DNA of 40,268 nucleotides from Reclinomonas americana ATCC 50394 (lineage: Eukaryota). The translations under genes and the position numbers were made by a program. Positions 3,100 to 39,911 of this stretch are shown here, piece after piece; position 1 is the stretch's first letter; each line of letters opens with the position of its first letter. The notes beneath the pieces are model-generated. The model saw only the letters and a program-made list of their open reading frames with translations. It ran no database searches and had not been told where the DNA came from. The stretch covers positions 79,369 to 119,636 of the forward strand of contig PS015129.1 in NCBI GenBank assembly GCA_048213135.1. The letters are read 5' to 3'.

Positions 3100-3477
3100 T
3101 CACCTCTGCTTCTGCTCCTCCTCCTCCTCCACATCGCCACGGCGCCGCTTCTGCTGCTTGCGCAAAAAGTCCTCATAAAAGATGCGCGCCACATTGTGCC
3201 GTCGACTGAGCGGATGCACCAAATGCCGCAGCGTTCGCTGCTTGCGCACTGCACACAAGAAGGGAATGAGCGACCATGTCCTGCACGAGTCAATCTCAGA
3301 TTATAACGCAACATGCCACCGCCACTCGCTCATCAAACGACGCCACATCCATCAGGCACGTCATGGCCGACAGTCGGGCACGCATCACGGCCGACGACTT
3401 GCCGTTTTCGCAGCACACCAAGTCCACCAGCTCGGTCACGCCGTCCATCGAGAGCAGCACGGCGGCGTTTTGAGGGT
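3100..3477 (-). CDS. Last two exons (3313-3477, 3100-3248) of a hypothetical, possibly ARM/HEAT-like protein (partial)
   Basis: Splicing (cag acceptor, GTTGCG donor at 3312, gtgcag acceptor) gives PQNAAVLLSMDGVTELVDLVCCENGKSSAVMRARLSAMTCLMDVASFDERVAVALRKQRTLRHLVHPLSRRHNVARIFYEDFLRKQQKRRRGDVEEEEEQKQR*. The family call is only an impression. Confidence 0.65.
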
Positions 3478-3499
3478 CTGCACAGGGGGAAATGAGGAA

Positions 3500-3663
3500 T
3501 GGAGAGGGAGAGGGAGAGGGAGAGGGAGAGGGAGAGGGAGAGGGAGAGGGAGAGGGAGAGGAGAGGAGGAAGAGAGGAGAGGGAAGGAGAAGGAGAAGGA
3601 GAGGAGAAGGAGAGGAGAGGAAGAAGAGGAAGAGGAAGAGAGANNNNNNNNNNNNNNNNNNNN

Positions 3664-3729
<66 letters not shown>

Positions 3730-3795
3730 TCTTCTTCTTCTTCTTCTTCTTCTTCTTGTTCCTGTTCCTGTTCTCCTCCTCCTCCTCCTCATCCT
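3500..3795. repeat. Microsatellite block (GAGAGG)n / gap / (TC)n / (TTC)n
   Basis: Directly visible. Similar tracts occur at 1703-1830, 13010-13205, 15097-15162 and 29712-29815. Confidence 0.95.
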
Positions 3796-3816
3796 CTGCT
3801 CTCTCTCTTCACACAG

Positions 3817-4523
3817 GTGCATTTGAGGAGGCGCTGGCCAAGTACACGGATGCGCTGGTGCTGTGCGCCGACGATGACGTGTCGGTGAAGGCGCTGTTGC
3901 ATGGGAACAAGGCCGCGTGTCTGCTCAAGCTCGTTGCGTTGTGTGTGATGTGTGAGAGATGGGAGAGAGTGATGGGAGAGTGACTTGTAATGAGAGCATT
4001 GTTGTTATCAGCTTCGTATCGCTGTCTCTCGTTCGTTGTTGCCCTCCTTCTGCCTGATCGTGTTGAGCGCATGGTGGCGTTGCTTCACTACCTCCGCGCT
4101 GAATGAGGGATGCGTCGTTGTTGTGCGCTCCTTGCTGCATCGCTGTCTCTCGTTGTTCTTGTTGTTGCCTTCTTCCCTTTCTCTCTGATCGTGTTGAGCG
4201 TACGGCGGACTCGATTCACCTCCTGGCACACTGAAAGAGCAATCCGCTGTTGCTCGTCTCTGTTGCTGTTCCTTTGCATTGTTGTCGCTGTCGCCTTCTT
4301 CCTTTTCTCGCCGTGCTCACTGCGTGAGCATTCCGCTGTTGTTGTGTCTCCCTTGCTGTAACATCGTCGTTGTTGTTCTTGCCTTGTTCCCATCTCGCCT
4401 TGTTCCCTTCCTACCTGCTGCATTCGGTTCTGAACCCTGGCACGCTTCAAAAACAACGCGCTGTGCTCTGTCTTTCTTGCCGTGTCTTTGTCGTCGTTGT
4501 TGCTGTTACCTTCTTCTCTATCG

Positions 4524-4565
<42 letters not shown>

Positions 4566-5119: not shown

Positions 5120-5430
5120 AGTGAAAATCGATGTAGAATTGACGTGGGTCGACAATCACTACGCAGGAGAACTGACAACGACGACGTTTTCTCCGAAGCT
5201 GCAGCAGGACAACTCGATCTCCGAAGCGCAGCGTGCGCGCTTCCTCTCTCCCTCTCCCTCCCTCTCCCCTCGTATGCTTCTTCGTCTTCTCCCTCTCTCC
5301 CATCGATTACCACACGTCGGTGAGCCGTCGACACCGTCGTGATGAAGTCGTGCCGACAGGAGAATCCAGGCACACTCATCTGACTCCCGTGTGCGTGCAC
5401 GCAGTCACTCACACGCCTGCACGCCACCTC

Positions 5431-8400
5431 ATGGCCTCCTCCTCCTCCTCTCCCTCCTCACCGGCTCCCAGTCGACCTCCGCTCTCCTCCGGTCGCTCCG
5501 AAGCCTCGGTGTTTCGCGATCGGTCGCCCGGCGACAAGTTCACCAATGCACTCATCGACGAGAAGAGCCCGTACCTCTTGCAGCACGCTCATAACCCAGG
5601 TCTTGCCTCACATCATCCTCTCGGTGAGGAGAGGCACGCTCGTTAACCCCGGGCCCTCCACGCAGTCAACTGGCTTCCGTGGTCGCCCGAAGCCATTCGC
5701 GAGGCCAGCGAGCGCGACTGCCTGATCTTCCTGTCGATCGGCTACAGCACGTGTCATTGGTGTCACGTTGCGTTCCGTGGTGGGACTCTCTCTCTCTCTC
5801 TCGGGAGGAGAGCGATCTGACGGCAGTGGCAGGTCATGGAGCGAGAATCGTTTGAGAATCCGGCCATTGCCGCCATCCTCAACAAGGACTTTGTGAGCAT
5901 CAAGGTCGATCGGGAGGTGAGTGGCGGGCATCATGACTGGGATGCAGAGAGGAGAAGCAGGGATTCGATTGCAGCGATGCAGGCAAAGACTGCACGTTTG
6001 TGGCTTCACAATGGCGCCTCGTGAGTTTCCTGTCTTCTCCTCTCTCTTTGTCTCTGCTTCGAAGTGTCTGTTGTTATAGCTTGTCTTCGCACTTCACTGC
6101 ATCGCCGATCTGCAGCCTGTTGTCGTCGACAGTCTCCTCAGTGATCTCTCCTCGTGCAACTGTTGTCATGCAGCTGGTTTTTCTTCATTTCATCTCTGCC
6201 CCGCTGCTTCAATGACTCTACATCACTGTTGCATAAGTAGACTTCCTTGTGCACTCCACTGCATTGCTTATCTGCATCCTGTTTTGCCGACAGTTTCCTC
6301 AGTGTCTTCCTTCTCCTCGTGATCCGAAGCGAATGTTGTCATTCATGCATGGTCTTTTCTTCATTTCGTCTCTTTCCCGCTGCTTCTTCTACTCGAGGTC
6401 ACTGATGTCCCTTCCAGTTGCACAAGTGGACTTCAATGTGCACTTCAGTTGATCTACAACCTGTTGTTCTGTTCAGTTTCCTCTGTGCAAGTGATTTTTC
6501 TGCTGCTTCTGTTGCTTCACGATTCGCCTTGTTCTCTCTCAGCTTCTGCTTTTCTGACTTTTGGTCACTGTTGCACAAGTGGACTTCCTTGTGCACTCCA
6601 CTGCTTTGCTTTTCTGCAGTCTGCGATTGCCGACAGTCACAGCAAGTGGTCTACCTTCTCCTGACTGTTTCTCTCCTCCCATTCCCTCCCTGCTTCGCTG
6701 CTTCTGTGACTCGAAGTCACTGTTGTTCTGTTCCATCCCCCTTCAGTTTTCTCCTTCTCACCAACTCCTCCTCCACCGCTCAGGAACGCCCTGATGTCGA
6801 CGCGGTCTACATGGTTTGGCCGTCGTAGATGCAGAGCACGATTCCATTTTTCATGCCCTCCTCATGCACATCCGCAGCGATTCCTGCAAGCGACCACTGG
6901 CTCTGGTGGATGGCCACTGAATGCATTCCTCACTCCCGATCTGAAACCGCTGGTGGCAAGTGCGTCTTCGGGTGACTCTCTCGTTCAGAGTCGAGATCAC
7001 TCATGTTTCCTCTGCGCAGTGACGTACCTGCCACCCGACGATCGCAGTGGACGGCCCGGCCTCCCCCGCGTGCTGCGCAATCTGGTGAGTGATATTCCGC
7101 TGCATGCAGCGAGCGCTTCCCTGTTCACCGTCCTCGCCTCATTTCGCAGGCTGCCGCGTGGCGCACCAGTCGCGATGAACTTGTTGCGAAAAACATTCCC
7201 GTCGGCCTCTTCTTCCTGCCCTATCTTCATCACTTTTCCCTCTCCTCCCAGATCTCACAAAGCCAGCAAGTTCTCGACGCACTGAAACAGGACCAGCATG
7301 GGTCCGAGTTGGGCGAGAAAGCCGCCGAATCCATGTTACAGCAGGGCCGCCAGATTGCCGAGTTGAGCGACAGCAAAATACGTGCGCACGCTGCTCTGCT
7401 TCGCACTCACTCGACTTTGCAGGTCGTGCGTTCGCCTGTTTGCTGCTCAATACGACGAGGCGCGCGGTGGCTTCTCGCGTTCACCCAAGTTCCCTCGCCC
7501 TGTGGAACTCCAATTCCTCATGCAGGCGCATGCCATTGGTCTCGGCGGAGGTCAGCACATCATCGTTGTTGTGACTTGCGTGACGAGTCCGGAGTGGCTC
7601 ACCTCTCCACTTCTGGCGGTGCAGATAGGCGCCGTCGACACACTGCCTTGCAGATGGTGACACGCACGCTCGAGTGCATGGCCCGTGGCGGCGTGTACGA
7701 CCATCTTGGTGCGTGCTGGAGAGAGGGATGTCTTGGTGTGCTGTACACTCACCCTTTGGTGCACTGCAGGTGGTGGTTTCCATCGCTACTCCGTGGACGA
7801 GTACTGGCATGTGCCGCACTTTGAAAAGAGTTACTGATGATTCTTGGTGGCGTGGGGGGGGGGGGGGGGGTTGTCGGAGAACTCACTGACGTTTTCTCGT
7901 GTCGATCAGTGATGTACGACCAAGCGCAGCTTGTGTGCGCTTACCTAGACGCGTACTTGCTCACCAAGGACGAGTACTTTGCACGTGGTGAGTGCGGTAT
8001 GAGTGGATAAGTGGGTGCTCCGAGAGCGAACACACACAAGAAAACCTACCGCTGCCCTCAAGACTGGTGTTAGTGTCGATGTTTTGAATATCGCTGCACT
8101 TGGTCAACGAGACAGCTGTTGCATGTTTGTTGATGAACGAATTGTGGTGACCCTGTATGCCCTTGCTACTCTCTCAGACTCCCAATGATGATATGATCTT
8201 TTCTTCACTCTTTCTTTAGTTCGCTGTGAGATCACCTGCAGTTGTCCTTGTTGACCAGCATGCCCTTTCTACTCTCTCCGCTCCCTCCTACTGAATTCTT
8301 CTTCCCTGTTCAAGTGGGCGCTTTCCGTGAGATTTCCTGCAGTTGTTCTTGTTGCCGCGACCTGCCACCACCACTCTCTACTTCTCCATGCCCTCTCTCT

Positions 8401-10768
8401 GCATGACCAGTGTGCCGTCTCTACTTTCTCAGCTCCCTCCTACTGAATTCTTCTGTCCCTTTTCAAGTGGCGCTTTCAGCACTCTTTCTCTCGTTCGCTG
8501 TGAGTCCGCCTGCTATTATCCTTCTCCCCCTTCTAAGCTCTTCTTCCCCTTTTCAAAGGTGCTTGCAACACTCTCTCTTTCGCTGTGAGACCTCCTGCTG
8601 TTGTTCGTCTTTCTACTGCCCATTCTATTCCCATCTCCCTTCTTGGCATTTCCTTCCCCTTTCCCTCTCTATCTCTCTCTCATGCCTGTTGACCCATTCT
8701 TGTTTCGGTTCTTCTTTATTCCTCTTCACTTCACTTCTTCCATTTTTTCTCTCTTCTTCTCATCTTCTTCTTCTCCCCCACTCCGCAGTGGCTCGCGAAA
8801 CTCTGGAATACGTCGAGCGTGACATGACACACCCCTTTGGTGGCGTGTACTCGGCCGAGGACGCCGACTCTGCCGTCTCACCGGGCGGCGAAAAGGTACC
8901 GTGCCAAGAGTTACTCGTCCACTCCCGCCCGCCCGCCCGTGCTCACTCCATCGCTGCGCAGAAAGAGGGCGCATTCTACTTGTGGGACGCTCGCGAGATC
9001 GAGTCCCTGCTCACTGCCGAAGAGTACGAGGCCTTCTCCGCCGCCTGCGGTGTGCAGGTCGGCGGTAACATTCGTCCGCGCTCCGATCCGCACCACGAGA
9101 TGCGCGGCCTGAACTGCTTGTACCGCCACCTCACCGACAGCGAAGTGGCCGACAAGATGAACTCTTATGTGCGTCAGTAGCTTCTCCACTCGCCGCTCAC
9201 TCTCTCATGAGTACGTGACAGGAGGAGCACGTGGTGGAGCTGCTGAAAAGCGCCAAGCGCAAGCTGTTGGAGGCTCGGTCGTCGCGCCCGCGTCCCCATC
9301 TCGACGACAAGTGTGTCACAGCGTGGAATGGTCTGTGGCTGTCCGCACTGGCCAAGGCGTATGGTGTACTCGGTCAGTGTGAGATAGCGTCGAAGACCGT
9401 TGGCTAAGGAGTGTTTGCGTGCTCACCTCTTGGGTGCAGGAGACCACGTGTACTTGGAACGCGCATCACGACTGGTGCGTTTCGTGCGAATGCACCTGTT
9501 CGAGAGTGCATCCAACACGCTGTGGCGCTCGTTCCGCGGCGAGGAGCGGTCCTCCATCCCGGGATTCGCTGCCGATTATGCATTCTTCAGTGCGTAGTCC
9601 GTCTTGGAGAATGAACCTCCTTTGTCTCACTCACGCGATTGCAGTTGCTGGACTGCTGGACCTGTACGAGGTGTCGGGAGAGGTTGAGCACTTGGAGGTG
9701 AATTTTATGTTGTGGTGTTTCCACTGCCACTGGGAACGACATGCACTCACTCGCTCTCACTCGCGCGCAGATGGCACTCAACCTGCAACACACGCAAAAT
9801 CGACTGTTCTACGACTGCTCAGCGTCGTCCGGCGATGTGGGTGGCTACTTTGACGCTGCCGGCTCCGATCCGCACCTGATTCTGCGCTTGAAGGACACGT
9901 ACGGTGCGTTCCTCTGTGCTTGCGCGGCTGGAACTGTCTTCGTTTCGTTCATTCTATCACTTTGGCAGATGGCGCCGAACCGTCGCCCAACTCGGTCACC
10001 GTACTCAACCTCACTCGCTTCAAGTGGTTGTTCGGGGAAAATCGATTCACGCCAGACATTGCCAACACCAACTTTGAGTCGATGGCACAGGCCACGGTCG
10101 GCACGGTGATTGGCCAGCTGCGGTGAGAGGGACACAAGCTGCTGGAACCGCGTGCTTCTTTTGTGTGACTGAAAAAGCCACCTGCAGAGAGGTCCCGCAC
10201 TCGCTGCCGCTCATGCTTTGCGGTCTACTGGCGCTCACTACCTCGCCGGTTCGCATCGTACTCGTTGAGGCCGAAGACGGGCAGCAGGTGCTGTCACTCA
10301 ACAGTGCCATGATCACGGTTGGTTGACAGCATTTGCGTGCTCCCCTGCTGCGTTGCAATCGCCACTCACCGGCGTGCCTCCAGGCGGCCAACTCGGTCTA
10401 CCTGCCACACCGGTACTTGCTGCGTCTGGATCGCTCCGATGGCACCGAGTGGCTCCTCGCCAACTCCACAGTTGCGTCCGCTCTCGCGTTCCTCATCATT
10501 CGAATCGTCGTGTGTGACCGCCGTCGACAGAGTGGCGATGAGTTGCAAGCGTACGTGCGCGAATCGCCGGCCGACAAGCCGCGCGCCTTTGTCTGCCGTG
10601 AACAGACGTGCCAGCCGCCAGTGGACAAGGTGTGGGCGAGAGGAATGATTGGGTACTGCTGATCGGCGGACTGACATGTGTTGCTCACAGCCCGAAGACC
10701 TGGTGCGACAGCTGGTGGAGGCGCAGTCGCTGGCGATGGGCGAGAGTGCTGCTGAGCGCGTAGGGTAG
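5431..10768 (+). CDS. SPATA20: SPATA20/YyaL family protein (thioredoxin-like plus six-hairpin glycosidase-like), about 20 exons
   Basis: Spliced motifs [130 protein letters not shown] and [16 protein letters not shown] 5431, TAG 10766-10768. Confidence 0.95.
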
Positions 10769-13135: not shown

Positions 13136-13191
<56 letters not shown>

Positions 13192-13671: not shown

Positions 13672-15074
13672 GTGCGAAGATGCTCGACTTCAAGTTTGTC
13701 GACATGTTTGGCACGTGGCAGCACTTGGGTGTGCCGGTGGCCAGCAACCTCTCGGAGTCGCTGTTTGCCAATGGACTCGGATTCGATGGTTCCTCCATTC
13801 GCTGCTGGGAGGTGCGTGAGGGTTGTCTTGCACTTCTCTCTTTGTTTATTTGTTGTGTGTCTGGGTGGCTGCGAGTGGGACGGTGCATCGTGAGCGGGCT
13901 GTGCTGGGTGTGGGGTGTGATGAGATTTTCCTGTATTGAGTTGTTCCGTCTCCCGTATTGTGTTTCATGCTTTCTTGGGTGCAGTCGCATGGACTTGCTG
14001 CTGCATTTACCTTTGTCTCTTCACGTGTCTTGTGTTGCATTCTCTGTGCGTCGTCTTCGTCTCTTAAGTGTTCTGTGCATGGCTTGTCGTTTTTCACTTG
14101 GCTCAACACCTCATTTCGTTGCTGTTCTGTGATCCTCTTCCGCCGACTATTGACCAAGCTGCTGCTCTCTCTTGCACACCATCTTTGTGCATGGCTTGCC
14201 GATCTTCACTTTGCGCACTTTTCCTTTTCTGTCTATGCATGTAACTTGCTTTGTTGTTCTCTGTGATCCTCTCCACACATCGGCTGTTCTGACCAAGCTG
14301 CTTTTGTATCTGCTCTTGCCTGTGATCATGCATTCTTACTCTCTTTCCCTCTCCACACAGGGCATTGAGAACTCGGACATGGTGCTGGTGCCTGACGCCA
14401 AGACCGCCGCTGTGGACCCGTTCCACAAGGAGAAGACCGTCTCGTTCACTTGGTTGCGTTTTGCTTTCCTTCCTTCCCTGACCCTTCTCCCTTCTGATCG
14501 TTGTTCGCAGCTCGATCAACAACCCCGATGGCACGCCGTACGACCGCGATCCACGGTTCATTTTGGACCGTGCGCACAAATACTTGCAGTCGACCGGCAT
14601 TGCCACCTTCTTCAACGTGGGACCCGAGGCCGAGTTCTTTGTCTTTGACGGTGTGTTGACATTTCCTGCCATTGTGTGCTACAACGCCTCTCTCACCCCT
14701 CACCCCCACCCCACAGGCGTCTCGTACGAGCTGCGCCCGAACTCTGCCTCGTACTCCCTCGAGTCCGAGGAAGGGCCGTGGGAGACCGGCAACAAGTTCT
14801 TCCGCGGCAAGCCCAACCTCGGCTACAAGCCGCGCGTCAAGGGCGGCTACTACCCCGTGAAGCCGAACGACTACGTGAGCGACGTGCGTGCCGATATGGC
14901 GTTGGCGATGGAGGTGTGTTTGCATTTTTCTTCGCAATTCGTGTGGACGGGAGTCTGATTGTTTGTACACAGAGCTTGGGCATTCCCATTGAGGCGCAGC
15001 ACCACGAGGTCGGTGCCGGCGGTCAGTGCGAGATTGGCATGAAGTACAACGAGGCTCGCTTGATGGCTGATCAG
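13672..15074 (+). CDS. glnA: Type I (GSI-beta-like) glutamine synthetase, partial (exons 13672-13811, 14361-14452, 14511-14650, 14717-14913, 14973-15074; C-terminal half absent)
   Basis: LDFKFVDMFGTWQH, GLGFDGSSIRCWEGIENSDMVLVPD, PYDRDPR, VGPEAEFFVFD, NLGYKPRVKGGYYPVKP and EAQHHEVGAGGQCEIGM are GlnA signature motifs. Confidence 0.95.
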
Positions 15075-15090
15075 GTGCGTGACTTTTTCC

Positions 15091-15162
<72 letters not shown>

Positions 15163-19790: not shown

Positions 19791-19941
19791 TTTCCTCTGC
19801 TCACTCGCTCTCTTCAAGCGCACTAACTCCTTTCGTTGTGCCGGATTTGGCAGTGGCGACCAGGTGTCTTTTTGGACCGCGGGGAAATTTTAAGAAAGGG
19901 AGAGTCAGTGTGTCTTGCCAACCAAGAAGCGAGAAGAAAGA
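19791..19941. promoter_or_regulatory. Putative bidirectional promoter between the divergent Rh genes
   Basis: Only 151 bp separate the predicted ATGs at 19790 (-) and 19942 (+). No specific element was identified. Confidence 0.5.
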
Positions 19942-24975: not shown

Positions 24976-25151
24976 AGTGGCTGAATTCCCGAACACACTT
25001 CACAACTCGGCAATGCCGCGCGGCAAGCAAACGCCAGACTGCCTGTGGACAGTAGCAGCAGCAACCACGAAGGGACGGCGACACGAGCGACGAGTTAATC
25101 GCGTTCGTGTCCTGTGATCGCGGCAATCGTTCTATCTTTGAGGAGAAGCCC

Positions 25152-27514
25152 ATGAGCAGACCCAATAGCATTGGAGGCGGCAACGCACAGCAGCCGGTGG
25201 GCGGTGATGTGCCGGAGCAGCCGGGTGGTGGGCGCCTGTCACACACCGAGCAGGAGGCCGCACTGCAGGAGATGTGTGACATTTGTGGCATTGATCGCGA
25301 TGCAGCGCGACCAGTGCTGGAGCGCGCAAACTGGAACGTGCATGTTGCGTGTGGGAGGGAGAATCAGAGAGAGAGAGAGAAAGAGAGTGAGAAGAACATG
25401 GACACAAACACGAGCAATCACAAGTGTTTTTCCGCGTGATCGCTCTTCTGCTGCTGCTCGTGATCCGTCTCTCTGTGTGTACATGCTCTTCCTTACACTC
25501 TCTGCTCTCACTGCTGTCCATCAATACCGCGTTTCTTGCTCACTCTTTCTCATTCTCTGTCGTGTGCTGTTGTTGTCCACTCTGCGTTCACAGGAAGCCG
25601 CCTCGCATTACCTCGACAGCGTGCATGCCATTGATGAGCCGGAGCCGGTGATGATTGGCGGCCCTGGTGTGCTGCTCATGCGACTGGTGCGTTGTCTCGT
25701 TGTGCTGCTTGTGTGTGTACACAGCGCGCTCATGTCTCGGACAATACCAACAATCTCGCAGGCGGCTGCTGTCGGTGCGGAACAGAGTCAGGCACGTGTG
25801 CAGGAGCTGGAGACGCAGAATGCCGAGGTAGGTGTCCTTCCAGCGTTGTTGTTGTCGTTGTTGTGGGGAGTCTCACTGGAATGCATAGTTGACGCGGCGG
25901 CTGGACGAGAGTCAGAGTCAGGTGCCGTGACTTGCGCGAGTCTTTCTCTGTCTGGTGTTGTGTCCTCACTGTTGTTTTGTATAGTCGGAGGCCCGTGCTC
26001 GTCACGTGCGTGAGCTGCTGGCACAGGTGGAGCGACTGCAGCAACAGCTGGTGTGTGTATGTGTTTGTGGGTTCCGTTTGTTTCTGCATGCTGGATTGTT
26101 CACGTTTCCGCTCCACTGACAAGGCCCGTGCGGAGAAACACGTGGAGGACATGCGCGCGGAAGCCAATCGTGTGGCACAAGCGGCAGCCACTGCAGCAGC
26201 AGCAGCTGCCGCCGCTGCCGGCAACATGTACCAGCCAAGTGGTGAAGCATCAGGTGCCGCTGCCGCTGCTGCAGCTCCGGCCGCCGCACCAGCTCCAGCC
26301 GCTTCTCCTGTGGAAGCACCCGCTCCAGCCGCCGCAGTGCAGGCACCGCCCGCAGCAGCAGCCGCTGCGCGTAATGCGCCCGCCGCTGGACCCGTCCTGG
26401 TGGCGCCACCGCAGTCCATGCGCAACATGGATGCTGCCGCTCCACCACCAGCAGCACCAGCAGCAGCCCCCGCGCACCCTGCACCGCACCCCGCACCTGC
26501 ACCCGCACCCGCTGCAGCGGCTGCCGCAGCCTCGGCCGCCGCGCCTGCTGCAGCAGAGGACAGCAATCGCACGCCAGACGGACCCCAACCACCTGCCAGC
26601 TCCGAAGGCAGAAGAATCAATGTCCGCGTGCGCGATGCTCAGCATTTGCACACTGGTTTGTCAAGTGATCCCGTTCTTCTTGTCCTCTCCCGTGCCTCTG
26701 CTCAAGCACAACATTGCGCACAGTGACTGCCATGACCAACGAAACCATCAGTCAGTTGAAGCAGAGTTGCGTATCTGTGTGCGGCATGTACAGGTTTGCT
26801 TTTCTTGAGCACTTATCTCTACTTGACAGCCATCCGCACTGCGTTGCCACGACTGGCGCACCTGAGTGACGAAGACATGCGACTGGTGTACCGCGGACGC
26901 GAGATCTCGCTGGACTCCTCCACACTTGCATCGGTGCCATTCGAGGACGAGGGCGTGGTCACCATTGTGCAGCGGTAAGTGGACGCAGTGGGGGTGTGTC
27001 TTGGTGAGTGCGCTCAAAGTGATACTATTTTCCCTGCAGCATTCGCGGCTCGGACATGCGCTTCAAGACCGATTTGCGACGCCTTGAGGGCGGCGTGTCG
27101 GAGCGGCTGCGCGCAGTGCACGCGTACCAATTTGAGTGGAATTCCGAGGCTGCGCGTGTCGGCTACACACCAGGCGATCGCGAGTTCGGTGTCATGGCGC
27201 AAGAACTGGAGGCCGCCTTCCCGTCGCTGGCTGGCGGTGCGGAGAGTGGCGGAGTGGTCGTCGACACGCAGGTACCGCCATCGAGTGGGTCGTCGGCGCC
27301 GGCCTCCTTCAAAATGGTGGCCTACGAGCGCATCGCCCCGATCCTCATCGATGCCGTCAACGAGCACACCGAGGCGCTGCAGGTGGCGGAGCGCGACTGC
27401 GATCGGCTGCAGTCGCTGGCCGACCAGCAGGCGAAACAACTGCGGGCACAGCAGGAACTTCTCACCATGTTGCAAGCACGTATCGAGGCGCTGGAGAAGG
27501 CGCCAAAGCAGTGA
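25152..27514 (+). CDS. UBA-like / coiled coil / ubiquitin-like / peptidase S74 (ICA) fusion protein, paralog B (exons 25152-25343, 25594-25686, 25762-25827, 25889-25921, 25985-26050, 26124-26655, 26724-26765, 26830-26974, 27040-27514)
   Basis: UBA-like: EMCDICGIDRDAARPVLERANWNVHEAASHYLD. UBL: INVRVRDAQHLHTVTAMTNETISQLKQTIRTALPRLAHLSDEDMRLVYRGREISLDSSTLASVPFEDEGVVTIVQRIRG. S74: SDMRFKTD...FGVMAQELEAAFP...VAYERIAPILIDAVNE. The UBA and UBL intron positions and phases match paralog A. Confidence 0.88.
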
Positions 27515-28797: not shown

Positions 28798-31700
28798 ATG
28801 GCAGACGAAGGGGCGTCGTTCGACAACGCCGTGTCGTGTCTGTACGACCCGAGCTCGCCACAGCAGAATCGCGCACGGCAATACCTCGAGCGCGTCAATG
28901 ACAACTGGCGCTTCTTGGCCGACCGCCTCTACCACTCACCCATGGTGCAGTCGGTGTTCCACTCACTGTCTCTGCTGCACGAGTTTGTCTCCAATCGGTG
29001 AGCACACACACGCGTGTGTGTGCAGTGCGTGTGCAGTGGGGGCGGGAGACATGTTCACTGACATCTCTGACACAGACTGGGCATGCTGCCGCTGAGTGAG
29101 CAGCAGGCGTTCCAGGAGTTCCTCATCACGTTTGTGCACGACCACACCACGTCGCCGTCGGGAGTGAATCCTGTGCACGATTCGCAGCTGTTTGTGCGCA
29201 CCAAGTTTGCGGTGGTGTATGCGCATGCGATTGTGCAGCAGTACCCGGCGCAGTGGGAGACGGCGTTCACTGCGCTGCTGGCGCAGGCGCAGGCACTGAT
29301 GCAGCAACTACCGGAGGGACCCGATGCATCGGTGTGTGTTTGAGAGAGAGAGGGTGATTGAGGATGTTGATGAGGATGAGGATGATGGTCCGGAGCTCTT
29401 CTCTGCTGTCTGAGTGTCGAGGATGCAGCGTGTTTCAGACTCTGATATCGTGTGACTGCCCCCACCTTTGTCTCCGTTGTGTTCTTTCTCTGCATGTTCT
29501 CCTTCTTGTTCTTCTTCCCTTCAGTTCTCGCTCTTCTCTCTCCCTTCCCTCCCTCCCTTGCTGTGCTGTGAGTCTCATTTCTCTGTTGTCTGAGTGTCGA
29601 GTTTCGAGAGTGTTTCTGACTCTGCTTTCGTTTGGTTGTCTCCTCCTCCACTTGCGTGTTCTGCATGCTCTCTTTCTTGTGCTTCTCCGCGAGACTCTTT
29701 CGTTCCTACTCCTCTCTCTCTCCCTCTCCCTCTCCCTCTCCCTCTCCCTTCCCTTTCCCCCTCCCCTTTTCTCTCCCTCTCCCTCTCCCTCTCCCTCTCC
29801 CTCTCCCTCTCCCTCCCGTGGGTCTCTTTGAATGTTGCTTCCTCTCGTCTCTCATCTTATGTTCCTATTCCTTCGCTCCAGGGCTACGGTGTCGGCCTCA
29901 TCGAGTACCTGCTGACAATCTTCACCACCGTCGACGACGAGGTGGTCAATCGTGAGATCCATCGCACCAGTGTGATGCACCAGGCGGGCATTCGTATTGT
30001 TGCGTGGATTGGTGTTTCTTCTCTCCTCGTGTCCACGTGCGTGTGTGTGTGTGCTGAATGGCATGGGGGAGTGCAGAAGGACGCTCTGCGTGAGCAGTGC
30101 ATTGGGGAGATTGTGAACTTTTGGGTCTGGGTGCTGGCTTCATGTCGCACGCACCACCCGTCACTTGTGCGGCAGTGTTTGGACGTCTTGTCGCGTTATG
30201 TCGGTGCGTTGTGTTTTTTGGTAGCAGAGGATAGCATTCACCTCATGGCTTCTCACGTTGTTGGCAGAGTGGATCGACATTTCGCTGGTGGTCAATTCAG
30301 CGCTGCTGGCACAACTGTACCAGTACCTGCAGGACGGAGAGACGCGCGCCGAGGCCGTCAATTGTGTTGCCAAGGTGAAGTTCGATTGCTTTTTTTCACC
30401 TGCACACTCTCCGCACTCACGCGTGCTCCCATTGCAGATTGTCGAAAAGGGTATGGACCCACCACAGCGCAAGATCTCTCTGCTGCAGGAGCTGGACATT
30501 GCAAATCTGTTGGATGCTGCCGCGTCAGCAATAGCGTCGCTGCAAGTTGCGGTACAGTGCCGCTTGTAATGCTGCATTCTCGGTGACTCACAGCAGCTGC
30601 TGCAGCCGAATCCAACGGAGACAGACCTGCTGAACGAAATGTCGGACCCGTACTCGTCGAATGTCGCCATGTTATGCTGCACCGTTGCCATGGAGCTGAT
30701 CGAGGCCGTTCCCATGGTGTGCATTTCTGGCGAGTGGTTCTTTCCAAGCAGTGTTTCATTTTTCATTGTTTCCTCGTGTGCGCAGCTGGGTTCGCCAGAG
30801 GTCATGGAATTCCGCACGTGGTCCCTGGAGGCACTGGATCGTGTGCTGGCGCTCATTGTCAGATTCATGCGAACGTCGCCGCCGGTGGTGGCGCAGGCCG
30901 TCATCGACAGCGTCATGATTTTTGCTCGACAGGTGTGTGAGTGTTTGTTGTCGACCTCTGTTTGTGTCCATTATTGACTAACGACCTCGGTACAGCTCAA
31001 GCGAGGTGACTTGATGCCACTGCCGGCGGAGCCGGGTGCACCAGTGGAATACATGGAATCACATCAGCAGGTGCACTGCTTGTGTTGCTTCCACAGACTA
31101 TTGTGTGTCCTTTCTCCTTCTCATAATTCGTCCATTGTCGTCGCTTAGTTGCTGCTGGAAATGATCGAAGTGATTCACTGCCGCATTGTGGTTCCCGCCG
31201 ACGTGGATTTGCTGGCCGGCGAGTCGGACGATGACACGTTCTTTATCGAGATGCGCGCTGTGCGTTACTCCCCCCTTTTCCTTGTTTAACGACCGTCCTC
31301 CGCCGTCACACTCATCTGCTACTGAGCAGAATATGCTCATCGCGCTAAAGGCGTTGATCAACTCGGCCCCGGAACCCACGCAACAAGTGGTGTACCAGCT
31401 GCTTTCGCGGTGTTGCAGCAATGTCGAGGCGTTTGCACCGGAACTCGAGGCCGCGCTTGCCATGTTTGACATTGTCGGCGAGACTCTGAGCAGTGCGTGA
31501 GGAAGAGCAACTCATGCGCACTCACTTTCTCTGTGACCTCTCACTGCTTCTCATCAGCTTGTGTATCGGAACCTGTTGGTATCATTGCGGACTGCATGAG
31601 ATTACTGCTGACCTCGCCGGTGCGACAGTCGAGCAACCTTATTGTGATCAAGGCCTTTATCGATGTCATTACGCGATACGTGAACTTTTTCCTCGCCGAG

Positions 31701-34011
31701 CAGCAGTACCTCAACGAGGCGCTGGAGTTGCTGCTGGGTCCATCGTTGCGTACGACACGATAAAGGCTTCTTGCGTGTTATCGTATGTTGTTAAACTCTC
31801 TCTCTCTCTCTCTCTCTCTTTCGTGCACACGCTCAGTGGTCTCCAGCACAAGGACGTGCGCTTGAGGAGACACACAGCCTCTGTGTTGCGGCGATTCTTC
31901 ATGCCGCTGCGTTCGGTGCTCGCCGAGGCTGCTCCGGATATTGTCGAGAACTGCATCGTGAGTTGGCGCCTCTCTCGTACCCTTCTCGACTCCACCATTC
32001 ATGACTCACCTTTCGGCCTCGACCAGAACATTGTTTATTTGGACATCTCCTCAATGGCGGCAGCCATGCGGTCGTCTCTCGCCGACGCGGAGCAGTTGTT
32101 GACTGATTGGAACGCAGCATTTCCGTTTTCCTCGCGCCTCGAAGTCAGCGAGGCCCTCGGCGCAATCACGTCCACGCACTCGGCCAGTCGCGATCTGCTG
32201 AAGGTTTTGTTTTCCTTCTGGTGCTCTCGACTTTGTTGGCTCCCAACTCACTTGCTGCCTTCTTGCGTGCAGGCTATCCTCGATCCTGGCATGCAAATGT
32301 TGCAGACTGCGGTGGCCGAAAGATGGTACGAGCTGGACGTGCCAGAGTTCCCGGTCATTACGTTCCTGGTTGGGTACATGGCACGCTTCCTCGGCTACAT
32401 GTCAAAGGGTGTGTCGCCTGTGTGTCTTTTGGCACAACCGTCGCTGAGCACACGGGACTGTACCGCTGACACACTGTCGAGCAGGTTTCCCGCGGGCGAC
32501 GGCACTCGGCAAGAAAATCACCGAGCAGGACATGACCAAGATGAACACGGTGCATCCGGCGGCCGAGTGTTTCTTCGAACTGTGGGTGCCGCTCTCGGAG
32601 CTGCTGCGGTTGTGTGGCGATGTGCGTCCGCGGCTCATTGCACATGATCAGATCCTCTTGTTGGTTCACCATTCTGTCTCCCTTTTGCAGCGGGCTGTTT
32701 CTATTCGGCTACAAGTGATTTTCCTAATGCATCGGCTCATGGAGATGGTCGGCTTGCCGCTGTTGACGCTGCAGCCGCCGGTGCTGGCCCCGGCCATTGA
32801 TCAACTGTTGGCCTACATCCCTGGTGAGTCGCATCTCTTCCCTGTAATTCCACTCGGTGGACGCGTCCGGATGCTAATCATCACGCTGCAGGTGCACTGG
32901 CCAATCCCGGTGCACAGCTGCGACCGATTCAGCTGCAGGACTACACCATGCAGGCCGAGGGCGCCGACTGGTCGCCACACGCCGAGCTCGGCAGCATCTA
33001 CAGCGCCATTACACAGATGATGAGTCGATTCCGGCACCTGGCAGCCGACAATGTTGCCGCGAGTTGCGTCCACTTCCACTGCAAGCGTCGTCTCTCTTGT
33101 CTATCACGCTCATCCACCATGCAGTCTTGCCGTCGTGCGTCGCGGTTGTGCTGGAGTTTCTGCGCCCGGTGGCTGGTGGTGACATTGGAGTGGCGATTGA
33201 GCGCACCGTGTCGATCCGCGATGAGGCGTCGCGTGAGCTGTTGGATCTGTTGGACAAGTTCTTCACATTTGTGGGCTCCATCTCTGCCTGCGGCTGCATG
33301 GACGCGCTGTGGACGCAGTCGGACGGCTCGGTGGTGCCGCAGCTGCTGGAGCTGTCCCTGATTTTGGTGGCGCGCACCAACAATCTGACAGTGGCCCGCA
33401 ACGTACTCGTTTTCCTGCAAACCGCGGTGGAGGGCATGCTGCAGGTGGATGGATTTGCGGCGTACGCCTGTGAGAAGCTGTTGCCGTTGATGGTGGCCTT
33501 TTTCGGCAACCCATACTGCCACCCGACGAGCATGGCGATGGTGCAGGTGCGTGTGTGCGTGCTTCTCTCTCTGCCCGCTGGCCCCGCCGTCCCGTGGTTG
33601 ATGTCACGAGGTTTGATGTTGCTCAGGCAATAATATCTCCTCTCTCCACGTTGCAGTCCATGGAGTCCGTCGGCACATGTTTCCGCATGTTGTACGCGGT
33701 GTGCGGCGACGTGGTGCCGAGCACGTTGATGACGCTCTTTTCACAACTTGCCATCCCCATGCGTGTGGGCCCAGCACAAGAGCCACCCGCCGCCACGGCG
33801 ACACAAGGTAATATGCGATGGCGTGGAATAGGAGACGTCGCGAAGATCGCTGACCTCTCTCCTCCGCGCAGAACCTCTGCAGTACAGTCAGGTGTCGCCC
33901 GACGAGGCACAGGATCTCGTGCAGCAAATCATATCGCCGGAGGTCGACGACAAAACACTAGCCGCACGGCTACAAAACCTAGTTCAGAGGCATCGCTTCG
34001 CCAGCCTATGA
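28798..34011 (+). CDS. XPOT: Exportin-T (Xpo-t/Los1/PAUSED) tRNA exportin, multi-exon
   Basis: FVRTKFAVVYAHAIVQQYPAQW, YLLTIFTTVDDEVVNREIHRT...IKDALREQCIGEIVNFW, CLDVLSRYVEWIDISLV and IVEKGMDPPQRKISLL match the exportin-T N-terminal pattern. TGA 34009-34011. Confidence 0.85.
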
Positions 34012-34064
34012 GTAGTGAAGCGATGTGTCCTACGTAGTACTCAGCAATCTTTTCCACAAGAGCG

Positions 34065-35663: not shown

Positions 35664-35728
35664 ATAGCGCTGCGCCGTCCCACCAAGTTCGAGGAGAGAG
35701 AAGAGAGACAAGGGGGAAGGATTAAGGA

Positions 35729-37548
35729 ATGGATATGTTGTCAATGGTGCAGCGCCTCGGCCTGCCGAGTGTGACTTCGTTGAATGTGCAACGCAAGGCC
35801 ACCGAGCTCTCCAACTTGGCCACCATTCGCTCCCCTCGCGGACTCGGAGATGTTGCGTGAATGCGAGAGAGAAGGCAGAGAGGAAAGGAGAGGCTCTCAC
35901 TCAACACACATTACAGGGTCAAGTGTGTCTACCTGCAGTGTGCCTCGAGTTGGCCTGTCAAATGTACGCCTCTCATCTCTCACTCACTCATCGTGCATTG
36001 ACTGATTGCATCTCTCTCCCTCTCCCTCTTCCCCTCTTTCACCCTCAGTCACAACATTCCCATTGACCGCGCGGCCTTGATTCGCATGAGTGGCGCACCA
36101 AGTCGCAAGGTCTACGAAGTCACCTGCAAGCAAGCGCAAGGACTGCTGGGCGTCAAGTTCCGTTGCTTCTTCCATCGTGCTTCCGCACGTGATGGCTCAC
36201 TGCGTGCACTGCCCACAGCATCAAGGTCACCATGGAGGAGCTGTCGCGCAAGTTCCAGGCCCCAGAGGTGGCCACACTGGCCGATCGCCTGCTGGAGACG
36301 TTGAGTTGTTCGAAGAGGAGAGTGCGTGTTTGAGTGTGTCTGAGGCGGCGTGACTGGTGCAGGTTCAAGGTTCGCTATCGGAGTCGTCTGGCGACGACCG
36401 CCAAGCGAGAGGCTGCCGACTTTGCGCGATCGGTGTTTGTTGCGGCAGCGTGGCTGGTGGCCTCGCGGCATGTGTCGACGGGGAGTGCGATCAAGCGTGC
36501 CGACGTGGTGCAGCTGGCTTCGTGCGAGTCGCGCGAGTTGGAGCAGACCGAGGTGGCGATCGAGGAGCTGTGCGCGGATCTGCTGAACACGGATCCGACG
36601 GCGACCACCACCACCTCGGTGACGAGCAGCAGCCGACCGACTCCCAAGTCGGCGACTGCTGCTGCTGCCAGTAGTGGCAAGAGAGGCGGCTCGGCTGGCA
36701 AAGGCAAGCGTGGGAGTCGGAAGGCGCTTCGCCTCGACGGTGAGGAAGACGACGACAATGGCGATGACGACGCCGATGGTGATGACGGGGAAGTGACCAT
36801 GCGTTCACCGCCCGCCACCACACCACGCGGCGGTAAATCCGGCAAGCGTGGCGGTTCCACGCGGCGCAAGCCGGTGGCGTCAGAGTTGCTGGAGCAGTTG
36901 CCCGACGACCCGTCTGCGCCGCCGAAGCGCCAGACCCCGGCCACTGCATCCCGCAAGCGCTCTGGCAAGCGTGTCACGCGACTGGCTGCCGGAGTGCTGC
37001 CTCGTCGTCTGTACCGCGACGATAGCGACGCGGATTCCTCCTCTGGCGGCTCCTCGTCATCCTCGTCGTCGTCCACCGATGACTCGGACAGCGACGAGTC
37101 AGACGCGGATGCTGCTGCTGGTTCCCGCCCTCCCCACAAGAGACGCCGCCTCTTGCCGTACGCCGTGCTCCCTCCGCCACCGATGCTGCCTCCGGTGCCG
37201 GTCCTCAACTTGCCAACCGTAGCACCACTGCCACCACCACCGCCGCCGCCACCGCCACCGCCACCACCAACTGCGGGTCGTGGAGGCAAGAGGGGACGCC
37301 CCGCGGCGGCGGCGTCATCAGCACGACGACCTGCACCACCGCCACCACCACCGCCGCCACCGCCAGCACCGCCCATGCTGCTGCCCAAGTCCGGTTCCGA
37401 CGCCGGAGTGACCACGTATCACGCCTTTTCGTGGACTGCCAACGAACGGCGCAGGTACACGAAGAAGGAGTACGCAGCTTGGCGATCGCGCTTCGTCGCC
37501 ATGGTCAACGCATTCGCGCCGCGCATGCCAGAGGTGGCCACCAAGTGA
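35729..37548 (+). CDS. ORC6: Origin recognition complex subunit 6 with a long low-complexity insertion
   Basis: MDMLSMVQRLGL...RKATEL, GQVCLPAVCLELACQ, IDRAALIRMSG, FKVRYRSRL...ADFARSVFVAAAW and the terminal helix EYAAWRSRF resemble plant-type ORC6. Confidence 0.85.
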
Positions 37549-37758
37549 AGTATATGTTCGACGTTGAAATGATTGTGGTATTCATCGACATCGCTCGCAC
37601 AGCAGCAGCAGCGAAATGTCTGTCTGCTTCTACGCTCTATAGTAGATGTGCCGTGGCAGAATACGTGCACACTGGCGAGAACGTCGTCGACGTCGCGAGG
37701 AAAAAAACAACCGTTACGACGTCGAGCTCCGAAACGTTGCATTCGTTGTACAAAATCA

Positions 37759-39911
37759 ATGGCCGACAGTGAGCGGAAAGCCAGAGGGCCTCGTTCAGCA
37801 CTCTCACAGAGCGTCGATGCGGGTGTGCGTGCAGCACAGACTCGCTCAGCTGCACTGCTCCCACCGGTGCCATTCACGCCCACGGGCAAGCTGATTGACA
37901 TTTCGCACACGGGCCAGTGGCAGATGATTACTGACTCGAGTTGCGTGAAGAGAAGGATGAGGAGAACGAGGAGGAGCTTTGTGTGTTTGTGAGAGGAGAG
38001 AGTGAGATCGGTGTGAGCAAAGGAGAGGCGACGAAAACGAATGTCAGAGACGACTTGGTATCGTGCGCGCACACACACACCTGCACGTGCACGTCGAGAG
38101 GAACACCCTCCTGTCGCCCGTGACACCCTGTGAGCGATCGCACTCACTCGCTTCCTCTTGTCAGATCTGTTGTCGCCGGAGCCGTCGCACCGATCGCTCT
38201 CCAGCAGTCGACGAGGCGACGGATCGCCTTCGTTTGTGTCGTTCCGCGGACCCGACGATGCGCTGCTGTCACTGTCGTTTGGCGACACGGGCACTCCTCG
38301 ATTTGCCACGCGTGATTTGCGCGTTGCCGAGGACATTCTGGGATCCACCGACCCGTGGACCGAGGAAGACGACGGCGGCCGTGAATCGTCCAAGATGGTG
38401 AGCGCGTGATAGTAGGCGAGATGCCGATCGTAGAATCGCGCTCATCGCTTCCCCTGCTGCCTCGCAGTTCGACAGCAACACCAAGCCCGGTCGCCTGCTT
38501 CTCGACACGCCGCCCGGCTCCAACGACGACAGCAGTGGCACATCGGATCTGTCGTGCTCGACGGCCTCGTTTGATGGTCAAGAACCGTTGCCGAGCGTAC
38601 GCAATCGCGTGGCTGAGCGCGGAGACGACGAGCTGATTACGATTGTCGGCAAGCCGCCGCGAACACCGACTGGCGCACGACCGACCAATGTGCCGGTGCA
38701 ACCCAAGTGAGTTCTCTCCGTTCCGTTCCGCTCCGCAGTCATCTTTCCTTTCTCTCTCTCACACACACACACACCGCGGTGCAGAGGCATCCCCATGCTC
38801 ATCACGCCAACATCGCCAACGCAATCGCCAGTGCCGCCACTGGTGCTGTCGTCCAAGCCGGTCATCACCCCGCCCAACATGTCCATGGACTGGACGCCGG
38901 TGATCTCGTCGGCTCTGCCGTCGACGCACAGCACCGTGCGTGAGATGGTGCCGGCACATCTGGCACCGTCGCCGATCCAGCACGTCCCGGTCGACGTGAC
39001 AGGCGAACCGGATTCGGAGGCCGATTCCGAGGCTGACGAGTCAGCCACAGAGTCGAGTGTGGTCGACTTTGAGGAGGCGATGCGCAGTGGCCCCGCGCAG
39101 CAGGTGGTGGTCACTGGGTTGACCATGCGCGATGTGATTTTGCTGGCTGGCCCAGCCGCCGATCGTGTGATTTTGCACCGACGCGGCGAGCAGCTGGAGG
39201 TCGAATTGCCGCATGCCGACGGCGACAAGTGTCGCACCACTGTCACCATCGGCCAGGAGCAGGCCGGTGGCGAGCAGGCCGCTCAGATGCAGCTGCAGGC
39301 AGCGGCAGCGGCGGCAGCAGGAGGGTCAGAGGACCACGATGCTGATGCCGAGGAAAGCGACGACATTGATGACGACACGGAGCGCGCACCTGCCTCGGCG
39401 ACACGTGCCGTGCGCTTTGTCGATGAGCAGGTGGCGGTCACCGACTCGGCCTCCCGTCGACGCCGGCAGCAACCGATTGTTGAGAGGCCGCAACAGCAGC
39501 AGCAGCAGCAGCACCAGCAGCCGAGGCGGCAGTCGCCAACCGTGACAAAGGCAACCCAGCATGACGGAGATGGGGAGGAGGAGTCGAGCGTGATGCGCGG
39601 ACAGCGATGTTGCGTTTGGACAGCGTGGGCGATAGAGTGCGGTGGTGGAGGCTTGAGTGACTCACTCTTTGTCTTCTTGTCGCCGCTGCTGCTGCGCAGT
39701 GTTTACGTCGCCGACCACCCGCGCACACAAGGTGGAGCAGGAAGTGGAAGAAGAGTACGTGGTGACCGTGCGACGACGACCACGCCAGCGGTGGACCGCT
39801 GCCGCCATTGTGTGCGCCTTGGTGTGGGCTGTGGTCGTCATAATGCTTGCCCTCGTCTACTATACCATGTCGCGCGAACCGATGTACCTCTCGTCAGGCT
39901 TTGCTGACTGA
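37759..39911 (+). CDS. Hypothetical S/T/P- and acid-rich disordered protein with a single C-terminal transmembrane helix
   Basis: Phase-consistent exons run from MADSERK to ...RRRPRQRWTAAAIVCALVWAVVVIMLALVYYTMSREPMYLSSGFAD*. No family recognised. Confidence 0.65.

Follow-up and report, generated by a model that had tools for sequence, protein, structure and literature searches.

The 40,268-nucleotide (nt) stretch of DNA studied here, referred to as the window, is a piece of the eukaryotic nuclear genome of Reclinomonas americana ATCC 50394 (contig PS015129.1, positions 79,369 to 119,636 of the forward strand). Its genes are densely packed with many short introns each, and these introns begin in two different ways. 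In the ordinary class of 5′ splice sites (donors), the intron has A or G at position +3 within GT(G/A)NGT, most often GTGCGT, and the exon mostly ends in G. In the second class, referred to as the T class, the intron has T at +3, most often as part of GTTGCG, the preference for an exon-final G is lost, and the conserved UGCGU core is displaced by exactly one base, away from the cut. The data reported here show that GTTGCG forms a second major donor class in the window and that this signal is real and strong. We suggest, with a probability that we put at roughly 40%, that both classes are read by one adapted U1 small nuclear RNA (snRNA) and that the T class pairs with it in a shifted register.

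All gene models are computational predictions, and all counts refer to the window. Introns were predicted with a dynamic-programming gene finder whose models for coding sequence, acceptor/branch and intron composition used the window itself for training. This finder was donor-blind, i.e. its only knowledge of the 5′ end was that an intron starts with GT, and the first 8 intron bases were left out of training. A donor-aware rerun with a two-class donor matrix is partly circular and, therefore, serves only as a consistency check; a first gene finder based on codon usage only was dropped because it gave many antisense shadows and spurious introns. The donor-blind output comprises 17 genes with 93 introns; 80 of these introns measure 45-200 nt (median 69 nt). 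In the donor-aware output, 18.2 kb of predicted coding sequence is interrupted by 91 introns (~5 introns per kb).

GTTGCG occurs 55 times on both strands of the window compared to 35.3 +/- 6.4 times in dinucleotide shuffles, and 0/100 shuffles reach 55; GTTGAG is not enriched in this comparison (25 observed vs 31 expected). GTTGCG heads the list of donor hexamers in the 80 donor-blind introns of 45-200 nt with 15 cases, followed by GTGCGT (13), GTGTGT (6), GTGAGT (5) and GTTGAG (3). Because only 55 of the 4890 GT dinucleotides in the window continue as TGCG (1.1%), the enrichment at blind donors is highly significant (binomial p=2e-14). In total, 16 of the 93 donor-blind introns and 24 of the 91 donor-aware introns begin at GTTGCG. 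In the donor-aware models, the fate of the 55 copies is 24 donors, 3 in sense orientation in exons, 8 antisense in exons and 15 intergenic. In other words, a sense-strand GTTGCG in a predicted gene is nearly always a donor (24 donors vs 3 exonic copies). Moreover, for 15 of the 27 GTTGCG/GTTGAG donors, no second GT-AG pair that keeps the frame lies within 12 nt. The original prediction had listed 25 GTTGCG coordinates as donors; all 25 carry this hexamer on the strand given, 14 were recovered donor-blind and 21 in the donor-aware models (not 3933, 7183, 10471 and 35852), and its three GTTGAG donors at 7362, 20717 and 36300 were all recovered donor-blind. It had also called GTTGCG dominant, which is correct in the sense that this hexamer begins more introns (19-28%) than any other and incorrect for +3T donors as a class, which are not a majority: with 31-36/80 +3T donors vs 42-44/80 +3A/G donors, the two classes are about level.

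The two classes differ in what precedes the cut. As had been claimed, just two GTTGCG donors (14453 and 19161) follow G (-1 base: A11, T8, C3 and G2 among the 24 donor-aware donors), and GTGNG donors mostly do (27/44 donor-blind, 28/42 donor-aware and 11/15 homology-anchored). The association between an exon-final G and the base at +3 holds in all three sets within the window. G is at -1 of 5/31 +3T donors vs 27/44 +3A/G donors in the donor-blind set (Fisher p=1.2e-4), of 2/18 vs 11/15 in the homology-anchored set (p=3.9e-4), and of 5/36 vs 28/42 in the donor-aware set (p=2.6e-6). The anchored set contains 35 donors (12 GTTGCG, 2 GTTGAG, 4 other +3T, 15 +3A/G and 2 +3C); none of the 14 anchored GTTGCG/GTTGAG donors follows G, and the two anchored +3T donors that do are GTTTGG and GTTTGT. 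The link between -1 and +3 is partly a general compensation between the exon side and the intron side, since within the ordinary class G is at -1 of 18/25 degenerate donors and of 9/19 perfect GT[AG][CA]GT donors. However, the depletion of G in the T class goes beyond this: only 2/18 core T donors follow G compared to 9/19 perfect ordinary donors (p=0.03).

The intron sides of the two classes are alike once they are displaced by one base. In the donor-blind set, the ordinary class (n=44) has G at -1 in 27 donors, G at +3 in 38, C20/A12/T10/G2 at +4, G at +5 in 33 and T at +6 in 29, while the T class (n=31) has G at +4 in 21 donors, C at +5 in 20, G at +6 in 24 and T at +7 in 20. In GTTGCG donors, T is at +7 in 14/16 donor-blind and 21/24 donor-aware cases and mirrors the T at +6 of the ordinary class. 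Positions +5 to +7 of the T class are indistinguishable from positions +4 to +6 of the ordinary class (p=0.09-0.75), whereas comparisons at the same position give p about 1e-8 (blind). Similarly, the -1 position of the T class (A10, C6, G5 and T10) resembles the -2 position of the ordinary class (A19, C8, G6 and T11; p=0.80) and differs from its -1 position (p=0.0016), as predicted by a register shift and not by a register with a bulged U. Ordinary donors have G at +7 in 20/44 cases, as in GTGCGTG, at a position that would face U2 of U1; this G is not copied at +8 of the T class. T-class donors other than GTTGCG and GTTGAG include GTTTCG, GTTCCG, GTTACT and GTTTGG. The introns of the two classes have similar lengths (68.5 nt in the T class vs 69.5 nt in the ordinary class, p=0.84) and are alike in base composition and branch motifs; this lack of difference makes it likely that one machinery removes both.

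The positions of many cuts are supported by homology, using Pfam profile coordinates, three homologue families and two paralogue pairs as anchors. The 35 anchored donors come from five genes in three families and four junctions represent paralogue pairs; they are, therefore, not fully independent. In a thioredoxin-domain SSP411/YyaL-like gene (5431-10126), the exon preceding the 66-nt GTTGCG intron at 5767..5832 (+; -1 C) matches PF03190 positions 21-53 to its last residue, and positions 54-81 begin with the first residue of the exon after 5832. In tblastn searches with ten full-length homologues, of which the alignments of three were examined, a gap of exactly 22 residues lies at this junction in 3/3 alignments, and 16 more junctions of the gene are fixed. 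The original prediction had argued that conserved motifs fix the cut at GT; this is verified by both lines of evidence for CHWCH/VME at 5767 and not confirmed for LKL/KRY at 3933. Downstream in the same gene, homologue alignments resume at 7424 after a GTTGAG intron at 7362..7422 (+; -1 A). Both introns were found donor-blind, and no alternative GT-AG pair within 12 nt would keep the frame in either case. In the glutamine synthetase gene (13680-15042), the flanks of the donor-blind GTTGCG intron at 14453..14510 (+; -1 G) match Gln-synt_N 48-75 and Gln-synt_C from position 2.

Two Rh/ammonium-transporter paralogues at 17231-19790 (-) and 19942-22448 (+) provide further anchors. The 72-nt GTTGCG intron at 21787..21858 (+; -1 A) is in frame and stop-free, and in tblastn with the homologues P0121 and P0122 it appears as a 24-residue insertion; it was found donor-blind and has no alternative GT-AG pair. 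The equivalent junction in the minus-strand paralogue is the donor-blind GTTGCG intron at 17828..17901 (-; -1 T), where tblastn stops at GPG and resumes at GAATIGF with a matching residue count. Both genes also have a GTTGCG donor directly after the residues LFLW in tblastn with P0121 and P0122: 21404..21497 (+; -1 T), which was recovered donor-blind and donor-aware, and 18191..18258 (-; -1 T), which was recovered donor-aware. In both paralogues, a 3-nt microexon in the context CAG/YTA/GTT is apparent between two short +3T introns, i.e. CTA at 21498..21500 (+) and TTA at 18188..18190 (-), followed by a GTTGCG intron at 21501..21578 (+; -1 A) and a GTTTCG intron at 18110..18187 (-; -1 A), respectively; these microexons and the introns that follow them are part of the donor-aware models. 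The microexon is invoked because 3/3 homologues (P0121, P0122 and the metagenome locus L001) have two residues (I-Y) between LW and WPSFN. In the plus-strand gene, homologue alignments start at 20803-20806 after the donor-blind GTTGAG intron at 20717..20801 (+; -1 A), and the frame after the donor-blind GTTGCG intron at 22174..22235 (+; -1 C) reads EWHTPDD and matches EWHVPDDY of the paralogue. In two UBA/ubiquitin-like/Peptidase_S74 genes (gene 1, 22724-24975, +; gene 2, 25152-27514, +), the first exon stops at UBA_4 profile position 29 in both cases, at donor-blind GTTGCG introns at 22844..22900 (+; -1 T) and 25344..25593 (+; 250 nt; -1 T). The ubiquitin-like domains of these paralogues align without gaps over the junctions 24140/26656 and 24245/26766. 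The GTTGCG introns at these shared positions are 24140..24202 (+; -1 A) and 24245..24316 (+; -1 A) in gene 1 and 26766..26829 (+; -1 A; donor-blind and with no alternative GT-AG pair) in gene 2.

The other T-class introns vary in how closely their boundaries are defined. On the minus strand, the 199-nt GTTGCG intron at 18963..19161 of the Rh gene (-1 G; donor-blind) has an in-frame alternative GT at -3 and an uncertain extent; GTTGCG introns at 19400..19474 (-1 A) and 19706..19770 (-1 A) were found donor-aware only and donor-blind with no alternative GT-AG pair, respectively; and a GTTGCG intron at 3249..3312 (-1 T) was found donor-blind. In the plus-strand Rh gene, the GTTGCG introns in the N-terminal part at 20225..20279 (+; -1 A; no alternative GT-AG pair) and near the C-terminus at 22347..22427 (+; -1 A) are both donor-aware only, and in the latter case the blind model took the GT at +6. 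The exportin gene (28798-34011, +) has GTTGCG introns at 29999..30269 (271 nt; -1 T; donor-aware only, with an uncertain 3′ end), 30546..30596 (-1 A; the cut could equally well be at an in-frame GGTACAG donor at +6), 31745..31836 (-1 C; donor-aware and in the first blind run) and 33063..33124 (-1 A; donor-blind, no alternative GT-AG pair). Finally, a GTTGAG intron at 36300..36362 (+; -1 C) and a GTTGCG intron at 39609..39699 (+; -1 T; no alternative GT-AG pair) were both found donor-blind. Four plus-strand GTTGCG sites were not confirmed as donors in the final models. Two of them (3933..3938 and 10471..10476) are part of no final model; the site at 7183..7188 begins an 84-nt intron in the first blind run only, is exonic in later runs and lies in a region that is unconserved in homologues; and the site at 35852..35857 begins a 65-nt intron in the first blind run only.

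The introns of the window are ordinary major-spliceosome (U2-type) GT-AG introns with a CTCAC-type branch box and a GCAG 3′ end. Their removal restores an open frame and homology, as documented by the 35 anchored donors. The 3′ end is CAG in 77/80 short introns, and the acceptor is very strict, with C at -3 in ~95% and G at -4 in ~62% of 63 training introns. Boxes of the type CTCAC, CTCAT or CTGAC are present upstream of acceptors, and the branch motif CTNAY lies 5-55 nt from the 3′ end in 60/80 donor-blind and 62/80 donor-aware introns, counts that are biased upward because the acceptor score itself used the branch motif. Acceptor and branch signals of such strength usually go with intron-poor genomes; the window is intron-rich despite them. 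U12-type introns are characterized by an extended RTATCCTT donor and a TCCTTAAC-type branch box. They were ruled out because the donor matrices show G/C/G/T at +4 to +7 and the branch boxes are CTCAC-like. Likewise, introner-like mobile introns were ruled out because the only matches in an all-against-all blastn comparison of the 80 introns were microsatellites of 13-18 nt.

How could one spliceosome read both classes? We folded each donor (-4 to +9) against the 11-nt U1 5′ end and compared the duplex energies with those of exonic decoy GTs using the area under the curve (AUC). The U1 5′ end used as reference is the textbook motif. Its ACUUAC core is printed in Roy & Bowser (bioRxiv 10.1101/2022.06.08.495308). 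With textbook U1, ordinary donors have a median energy of -5.7 kcal/mol (AUC 0.78), while GTTGCG donors, with -1.8 kcal/mol (AUC 0.39), are predicted to pair no better than the decoys (-2.5 kcal/mol). With an ACGUAC-type U1, the medians are -7.0 kcal/mol for ordinary donors (AUC 0.87), -5.6 kcal/mol for GTTGCG donors (AUC 0.76) and -3.9 kcal/mol for decoys. Overall, adapted U1 ends of the ACGUAC or ACGCAC type raise the AUC from 0.39 to 0.76-0.80 for GTTGCG donors and from 0.78 to 0.85-0.87 for ordinary donors. The consensus sites behave in the same way: GA/GUUGCGU and AG/GUGCGU reach -1.8 and -8.6 kcal/mol, respectively, with textbook U1, and -5.6 kcal/mol (shifted register with five contiguous pairs) and -14.5 kcal/mol with ACGUAC-type U1. 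Thus, shifted pairing is not sufficient for binding with textbook U1, with which GUUGCGU pairs no better than the decoys in any register, and it would be sufficient only with a hypothetical ACGUAC/ACGCAC-type end. The original prediction had proposed that the two donors may be one signal read in two registers or, as a second option, that the snRNAs are variant. Because GUUGCGU forms no stable duplex with textbook U1, a simple shift of the standard U1 is insufficient, and the weight, therefore, moves to the second option. The idea of one signal in two registers fits the one-base displacement on the intron side and the similarity of T-class -1 to ordinary -2; it does not fit positions -2 and +8, or the pairing with textbook U1. 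We consider an adapted, Archamoebae-like U1 or a second U1 likelier than a plain shift.

Based on these data, we propose a tentative model in which both classes would present the heptamer G-(G/U)-U-G-C-G-U to one and the same snRNA surface, initially that of the U1 5′ end and later that of U6. If the second letter is G, the cut would fall after the first G. If the second letter is U, the sole GU would begin at the first G and the cut would, relative to the paired core, lie one base upstream of its usual place, as in the register shift demonstrated at rare sites in humans. In this model, U1 would carry a G opposite the donor C, its 5′ end would be of the type described for Mastigamoeba (ACGUAC or ACGCAC), and such a U1 could form five contiguous pairs with UGCGU together with a G:C pair at +1. 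We infer this U1 sequence because C is strongly preferred opposite U1 position 5 and because textbook U1 cannot hold GUUGCGU.

Several observations weigh against this model. G11 of U1 should favor C at -2 of the T class, yet C is depleted there (1/31 vs 15/44 at ordinary -3, p=0.008; vs 30% C in exons, p=3e-4), and this avoidance of C at -2 of +3T donors is explained by no model that we considered. With ACGUAC-type U1, AG/GUUGCGU would pair best (-9.9 kcal/mol, in a bulged register), yet G at -1 is rare; U1 thermodynamics alone can, therefore, not explain the depletion of G, and neither a second U1 nor selection by U6/U5 or proteins accounts for it. Of A and T at -1, only A would pair with U10 of U1, yet T is found there just as often (10/31). 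Position +8 of the T class is T-rich (15/31), while ordinary +7 is G-rich (20/44; p=0.05). C at +4 or +5 need not imply a changed U1, because Thecamonas and Mamiellales prefer C at +4 and have a standard U1 as described in Roy & Bowser. Moreover, the energy model leaves out pseudouridine and the proteins of U1 and its ribonucleoprotein particle, about 14 genes, several of them paralogous, in one 40-kb window supply every count, and the gene models are predictions of our own finder. At least one +3T call is wrong: at 7565 (GTTGTT), homology places the donor at 7551 (GTCAGC; intron to 7625). The pairing partner in this organism, whether U1, U5 or U6, is conjecture.

Alternatively, a dedicated second U1 snRNA or U1 variant with a 5′ end fully complementary to GUUGCGU might serve the T class, giving one U1 per class and no shift. 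The T class is indeed stereotyped, with GTTGCG representing 15/31 donor-blind and 22/36 donor-aware +3T donors and T at +7 in 21/24; a hypothetical full complement of GUUGCGU would separate GTTGCG donors nearly completely from decoys (median -10.2 vs -4.55 kcal/mol, AUC 0.99) and would still bind ordinary donors (-7.5 kcal/mol, AUC 0.81). Expressed variant U1 genes exist in humans (PMC3561869). However, an RNA of this kind is hypothetical here, the identity of the two cores after a one-base displacement would be a coincidence while it is expected under a shift, and the other +3T donors (GTTTCG, GTTCCG, GTTACT and GTTTGG) would pair poorly with it. We consider this possibility unlikely. The same applies to the idea that the T class is independent of U1 pairing, i.e. 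that it is an extreme form of an “intron-side” 5′ splice-site class selected at the transfer to U6/U5 or by U1C/LUC7, with the free -1 position reflecting ordinary compensation. Such compensation is present within the ordinary class (G at -1 of 18/25 degenerate vs 9/19 perfect donors), and GTTGCG donors pair no better than decoys with textbook U1. Pairing with the U6 ACAGA box needs G at +5 and U at +6. By contrast, the T class has C at +5 and G/U at +6/+7, so that U6 would also need a displaced or bulged register, and the depletion of G at -1 exceeds that of perfect ordinary donors (2/18 vs 9/19, p=0.03).

In a third arrangement, U1 would be anchored as usual, with C8 on the +1 G and C9 on -1, one U at +2/+3 would be bulged, and the remaining helix would be that of GUGCGU. 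Such a bulge would account equally well for the intron-side displacement of one base and is predicted by ViennaRNA for AG/GUUGCGU with ACGUAC-type U1 (-9.9 kcal/mol), and a bulge +2/+3 register is accepted for a few human sites (68 predicted sites are tabulated in PMC4856993). However, a bulge predicts that G at -1 is kept or enriched, while it was observed in only 5/31 donor-blind T-class donors, 2/24 GTTGCG donors and 0/14 anchored core donors, making this arrangement quite improbable. Least probable by far is that the T class is an artefact of gene modelling and that the true junctions are elsewhere, e.g. at the GT at +6 of GTTGCGT, or that the segments are not introns. The junctions are computational predictions, the blind model took the GT at +6 in four cases (22352, 24250, 31750 and 35857), and 12/27 GTTGCG/GTTGAG donors have another frame-keeping GT-AG pair within 12 nt. 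On the other hand, the Pfam junction at 5767 is exact to the residue, homologue gaps equal the intron length at 5767 and 21787, junction positions are common to paralogue pairs, 15/27 donors have no alternative, and GTTGCG begins 15/80 blind introns vs a background of 1.1%. Among these explanations, one adapted U1 that reads the T class in a shifted register is the one that we favor.

The T class shares features with several known systems. Human shifted sites have the core UAAGU. Here, the core is UGCGU, which textbook U1 would hold very weakly. The mammalian 5′ splice sites that are read in a shifted register (Roca & Krainer 2009, cited in Tan et al. 2016, PMC4856993) are otherwise similar: they carry U at +3 with the consensus one base downstream, the U1 register does not determine where the cut falls, and the exon can do without G at -1. 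In human cells, shifted and bulged registers are experimentally established, yet all validated noncanonical registers together make up 1.5% of 201,541 sites (PMC4856993), while GTTGCG on its own begins 19-28% of the window's introns. Human 5′ splice sites read in the bulge +2/+3 register (Roca et al. 2012, cited in PMC4856993) have the same displaced consensus on the intron side; exon-side pairing is retained there, while G at -1 is not kept here. Conserved letters that stand one base further from the cut are a rare curiosity in humans and look like routine intron marking in the window.

Matching of atypical donors and snRNAs is described in Archamoebae (Roy & Bowser, bioRxiv 10.1101/2022.06.08.495308): in Entamoeba, the donor GUUUGU(U) is matched by U1 (A)ACAAAC, and in Mastigamoeba balamuthi, the donor is GUGCGC and the U1 candidate ACGUAC. 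Like the window, these lineages use an atypical donor as a rule (U at +3 for Entamoeba, C at +4 for Mastigamoeba), and an ACGUAC-type U1 would fit the GUGCGU of the window and, in the shifted register, GUUGCGU. However, Entamoeba has a single class, in which G and U keep their normal-register places at +5 and +6, and Mastigamoeba prefers C at +6, where the window has T in 29/44 and C in 10/44 ordinary donors. In its available text, Roy & Bowser report no second displaced donor class in Archamoebae, and the terms “shifted”, “register” and “GUUG” are absent from that text. M. balamuthi has a GC content of 60.7%, 3.4 introns per gene and a mean intron length of 137 bp (PMC8136499), and introns in the window are shorter and denser. 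Mamiellales, with GYGCGY donors, and Thecamonas trahens, with +4C donors, have a standard U1 (Roy & Bowser; Irimia & Roy 2008, PMC2483917). They share with the window a GTGCG-type ordinary class and strong branch boxes; unlike the window, with ~5 introns per kb coding sequence and two classes, they are described as intron-poor with one consensus. Two general 5′ splice-site classes with compensation between exon and intron side are present in many eukaryotes (Parker et al., PMC11732430). There as here, G at -1 is negatively associated with a strong intron-side motif; however, those classes have one common register, as described by Parker et al., while here the motif has moved by one base and has C rather than G at +5. 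Diplonemid donors have the form (G)/GTATG (PMC12621601). We found no description of GUUGCG donors, and no lineage with a shifted register as one of its major donor classes, in the literature searched (including PMC13326754 for the latter, as far as its available text goes), which excluded most subscription journals, so that an earlier description is possible.

The window has a GC content of mostly 50-62% and contains six runs of N. Genes were named by Pfam searches on open frames and then by exon-level work. In addition to the genes described, there is a TPR gene from about 4434, an intronless WD40 gene of 359 residues at 27625-28704 (-), and several unnamed genes following the exportin gene. 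There are two local duplications, with the Rh genes head to head (17231-22448) and the UBA/ubiquitin-like/Peptidase_S74 genes in tandem (22724-27514); both paralogue pairs have intron positions in common and the donor class is mostly equal. An Rh exon query of a large protein collection returned just two relatives (42-43% identity), and a second protein resource assigned the Rh genes to the Amt family only. In a single search, which is weak evidence, no full-length protein of these Rh genes was present among public proteins of 346-2000 residues; this would fit a genome that is unannotated or mis-annotated. The metagenome locus L001 was rejected as a relative because it is AT-rich (26.7% GC) and its Rh gene is intronless. 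The SSP411-like gene has two long introns at 5917-6783 (867 nt) and 7988-8788 (801 nt) on the plus strand, both with GTGAGT donors and G at -1, while its other introns are ~55-90 nt; homologue alignments gave no conserved exon inside the long introns, and the gene finder had cut the gene in two at 7988-8788. The WD40 gene is intronless and on the opposite strand amid intron-dense genes. Its database matches are generic and the best named ones include cyanobacterial WD40 proteins (e.g. Nostoc, 38% identity); judged from such similarity, the gene may have been acquired horizontally, or the matches may simply reflect generic repeat similarity. Rfam gave no match of any kind in the window at the gathering score, so that no snRNA gene was found, and neither was a transfer RNA. 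Sub-threshold Rfam matches (plant microRNA families, Hsp83 3′ untranslated region and snoR125) at 3497-3768 on both strands overlap the N run at 3644-3663, and further ones similar to microRNAs and untranslated regions at 26180-26287 are in alanine-codon repeats; we take these as artefacts of a gap with low-complexity flanks and of the repeats, respectively, and reject them as RNA genes.

Noncanonical U1 registers have so far been known only from mammals, where they are rare exceptions. The T class would represent a variant of such noncanonical donor recognition, and of the matching between donors and snRNAs in a lineage-specific manner. Gene predictors with a single donor matrix would miss or misplace such introns; indeed, a model lacking class-specific donors took the wrong GT at four sites and merged the introns flanking the microexon. 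One possibility, which we regard as doubtful, is that the cut position is routinely uncoupled from the U1-paired core, with ~40% of introns cut one base upstream, or that a second U1 with an ACGCAAC-like end exists. If true, the major spliceosome of this lineage would naturally work with two registers or with two U1s, which would also account for standard gene finders possibly mis-modelling such a genome. If the T class accounts for a fifth to two fifths of introns genome-wide, the organism would provide a natural system for studying the co-evolution of donor motifs and snRNAs and the choice of a cut site that does not depend on U1 pairing.

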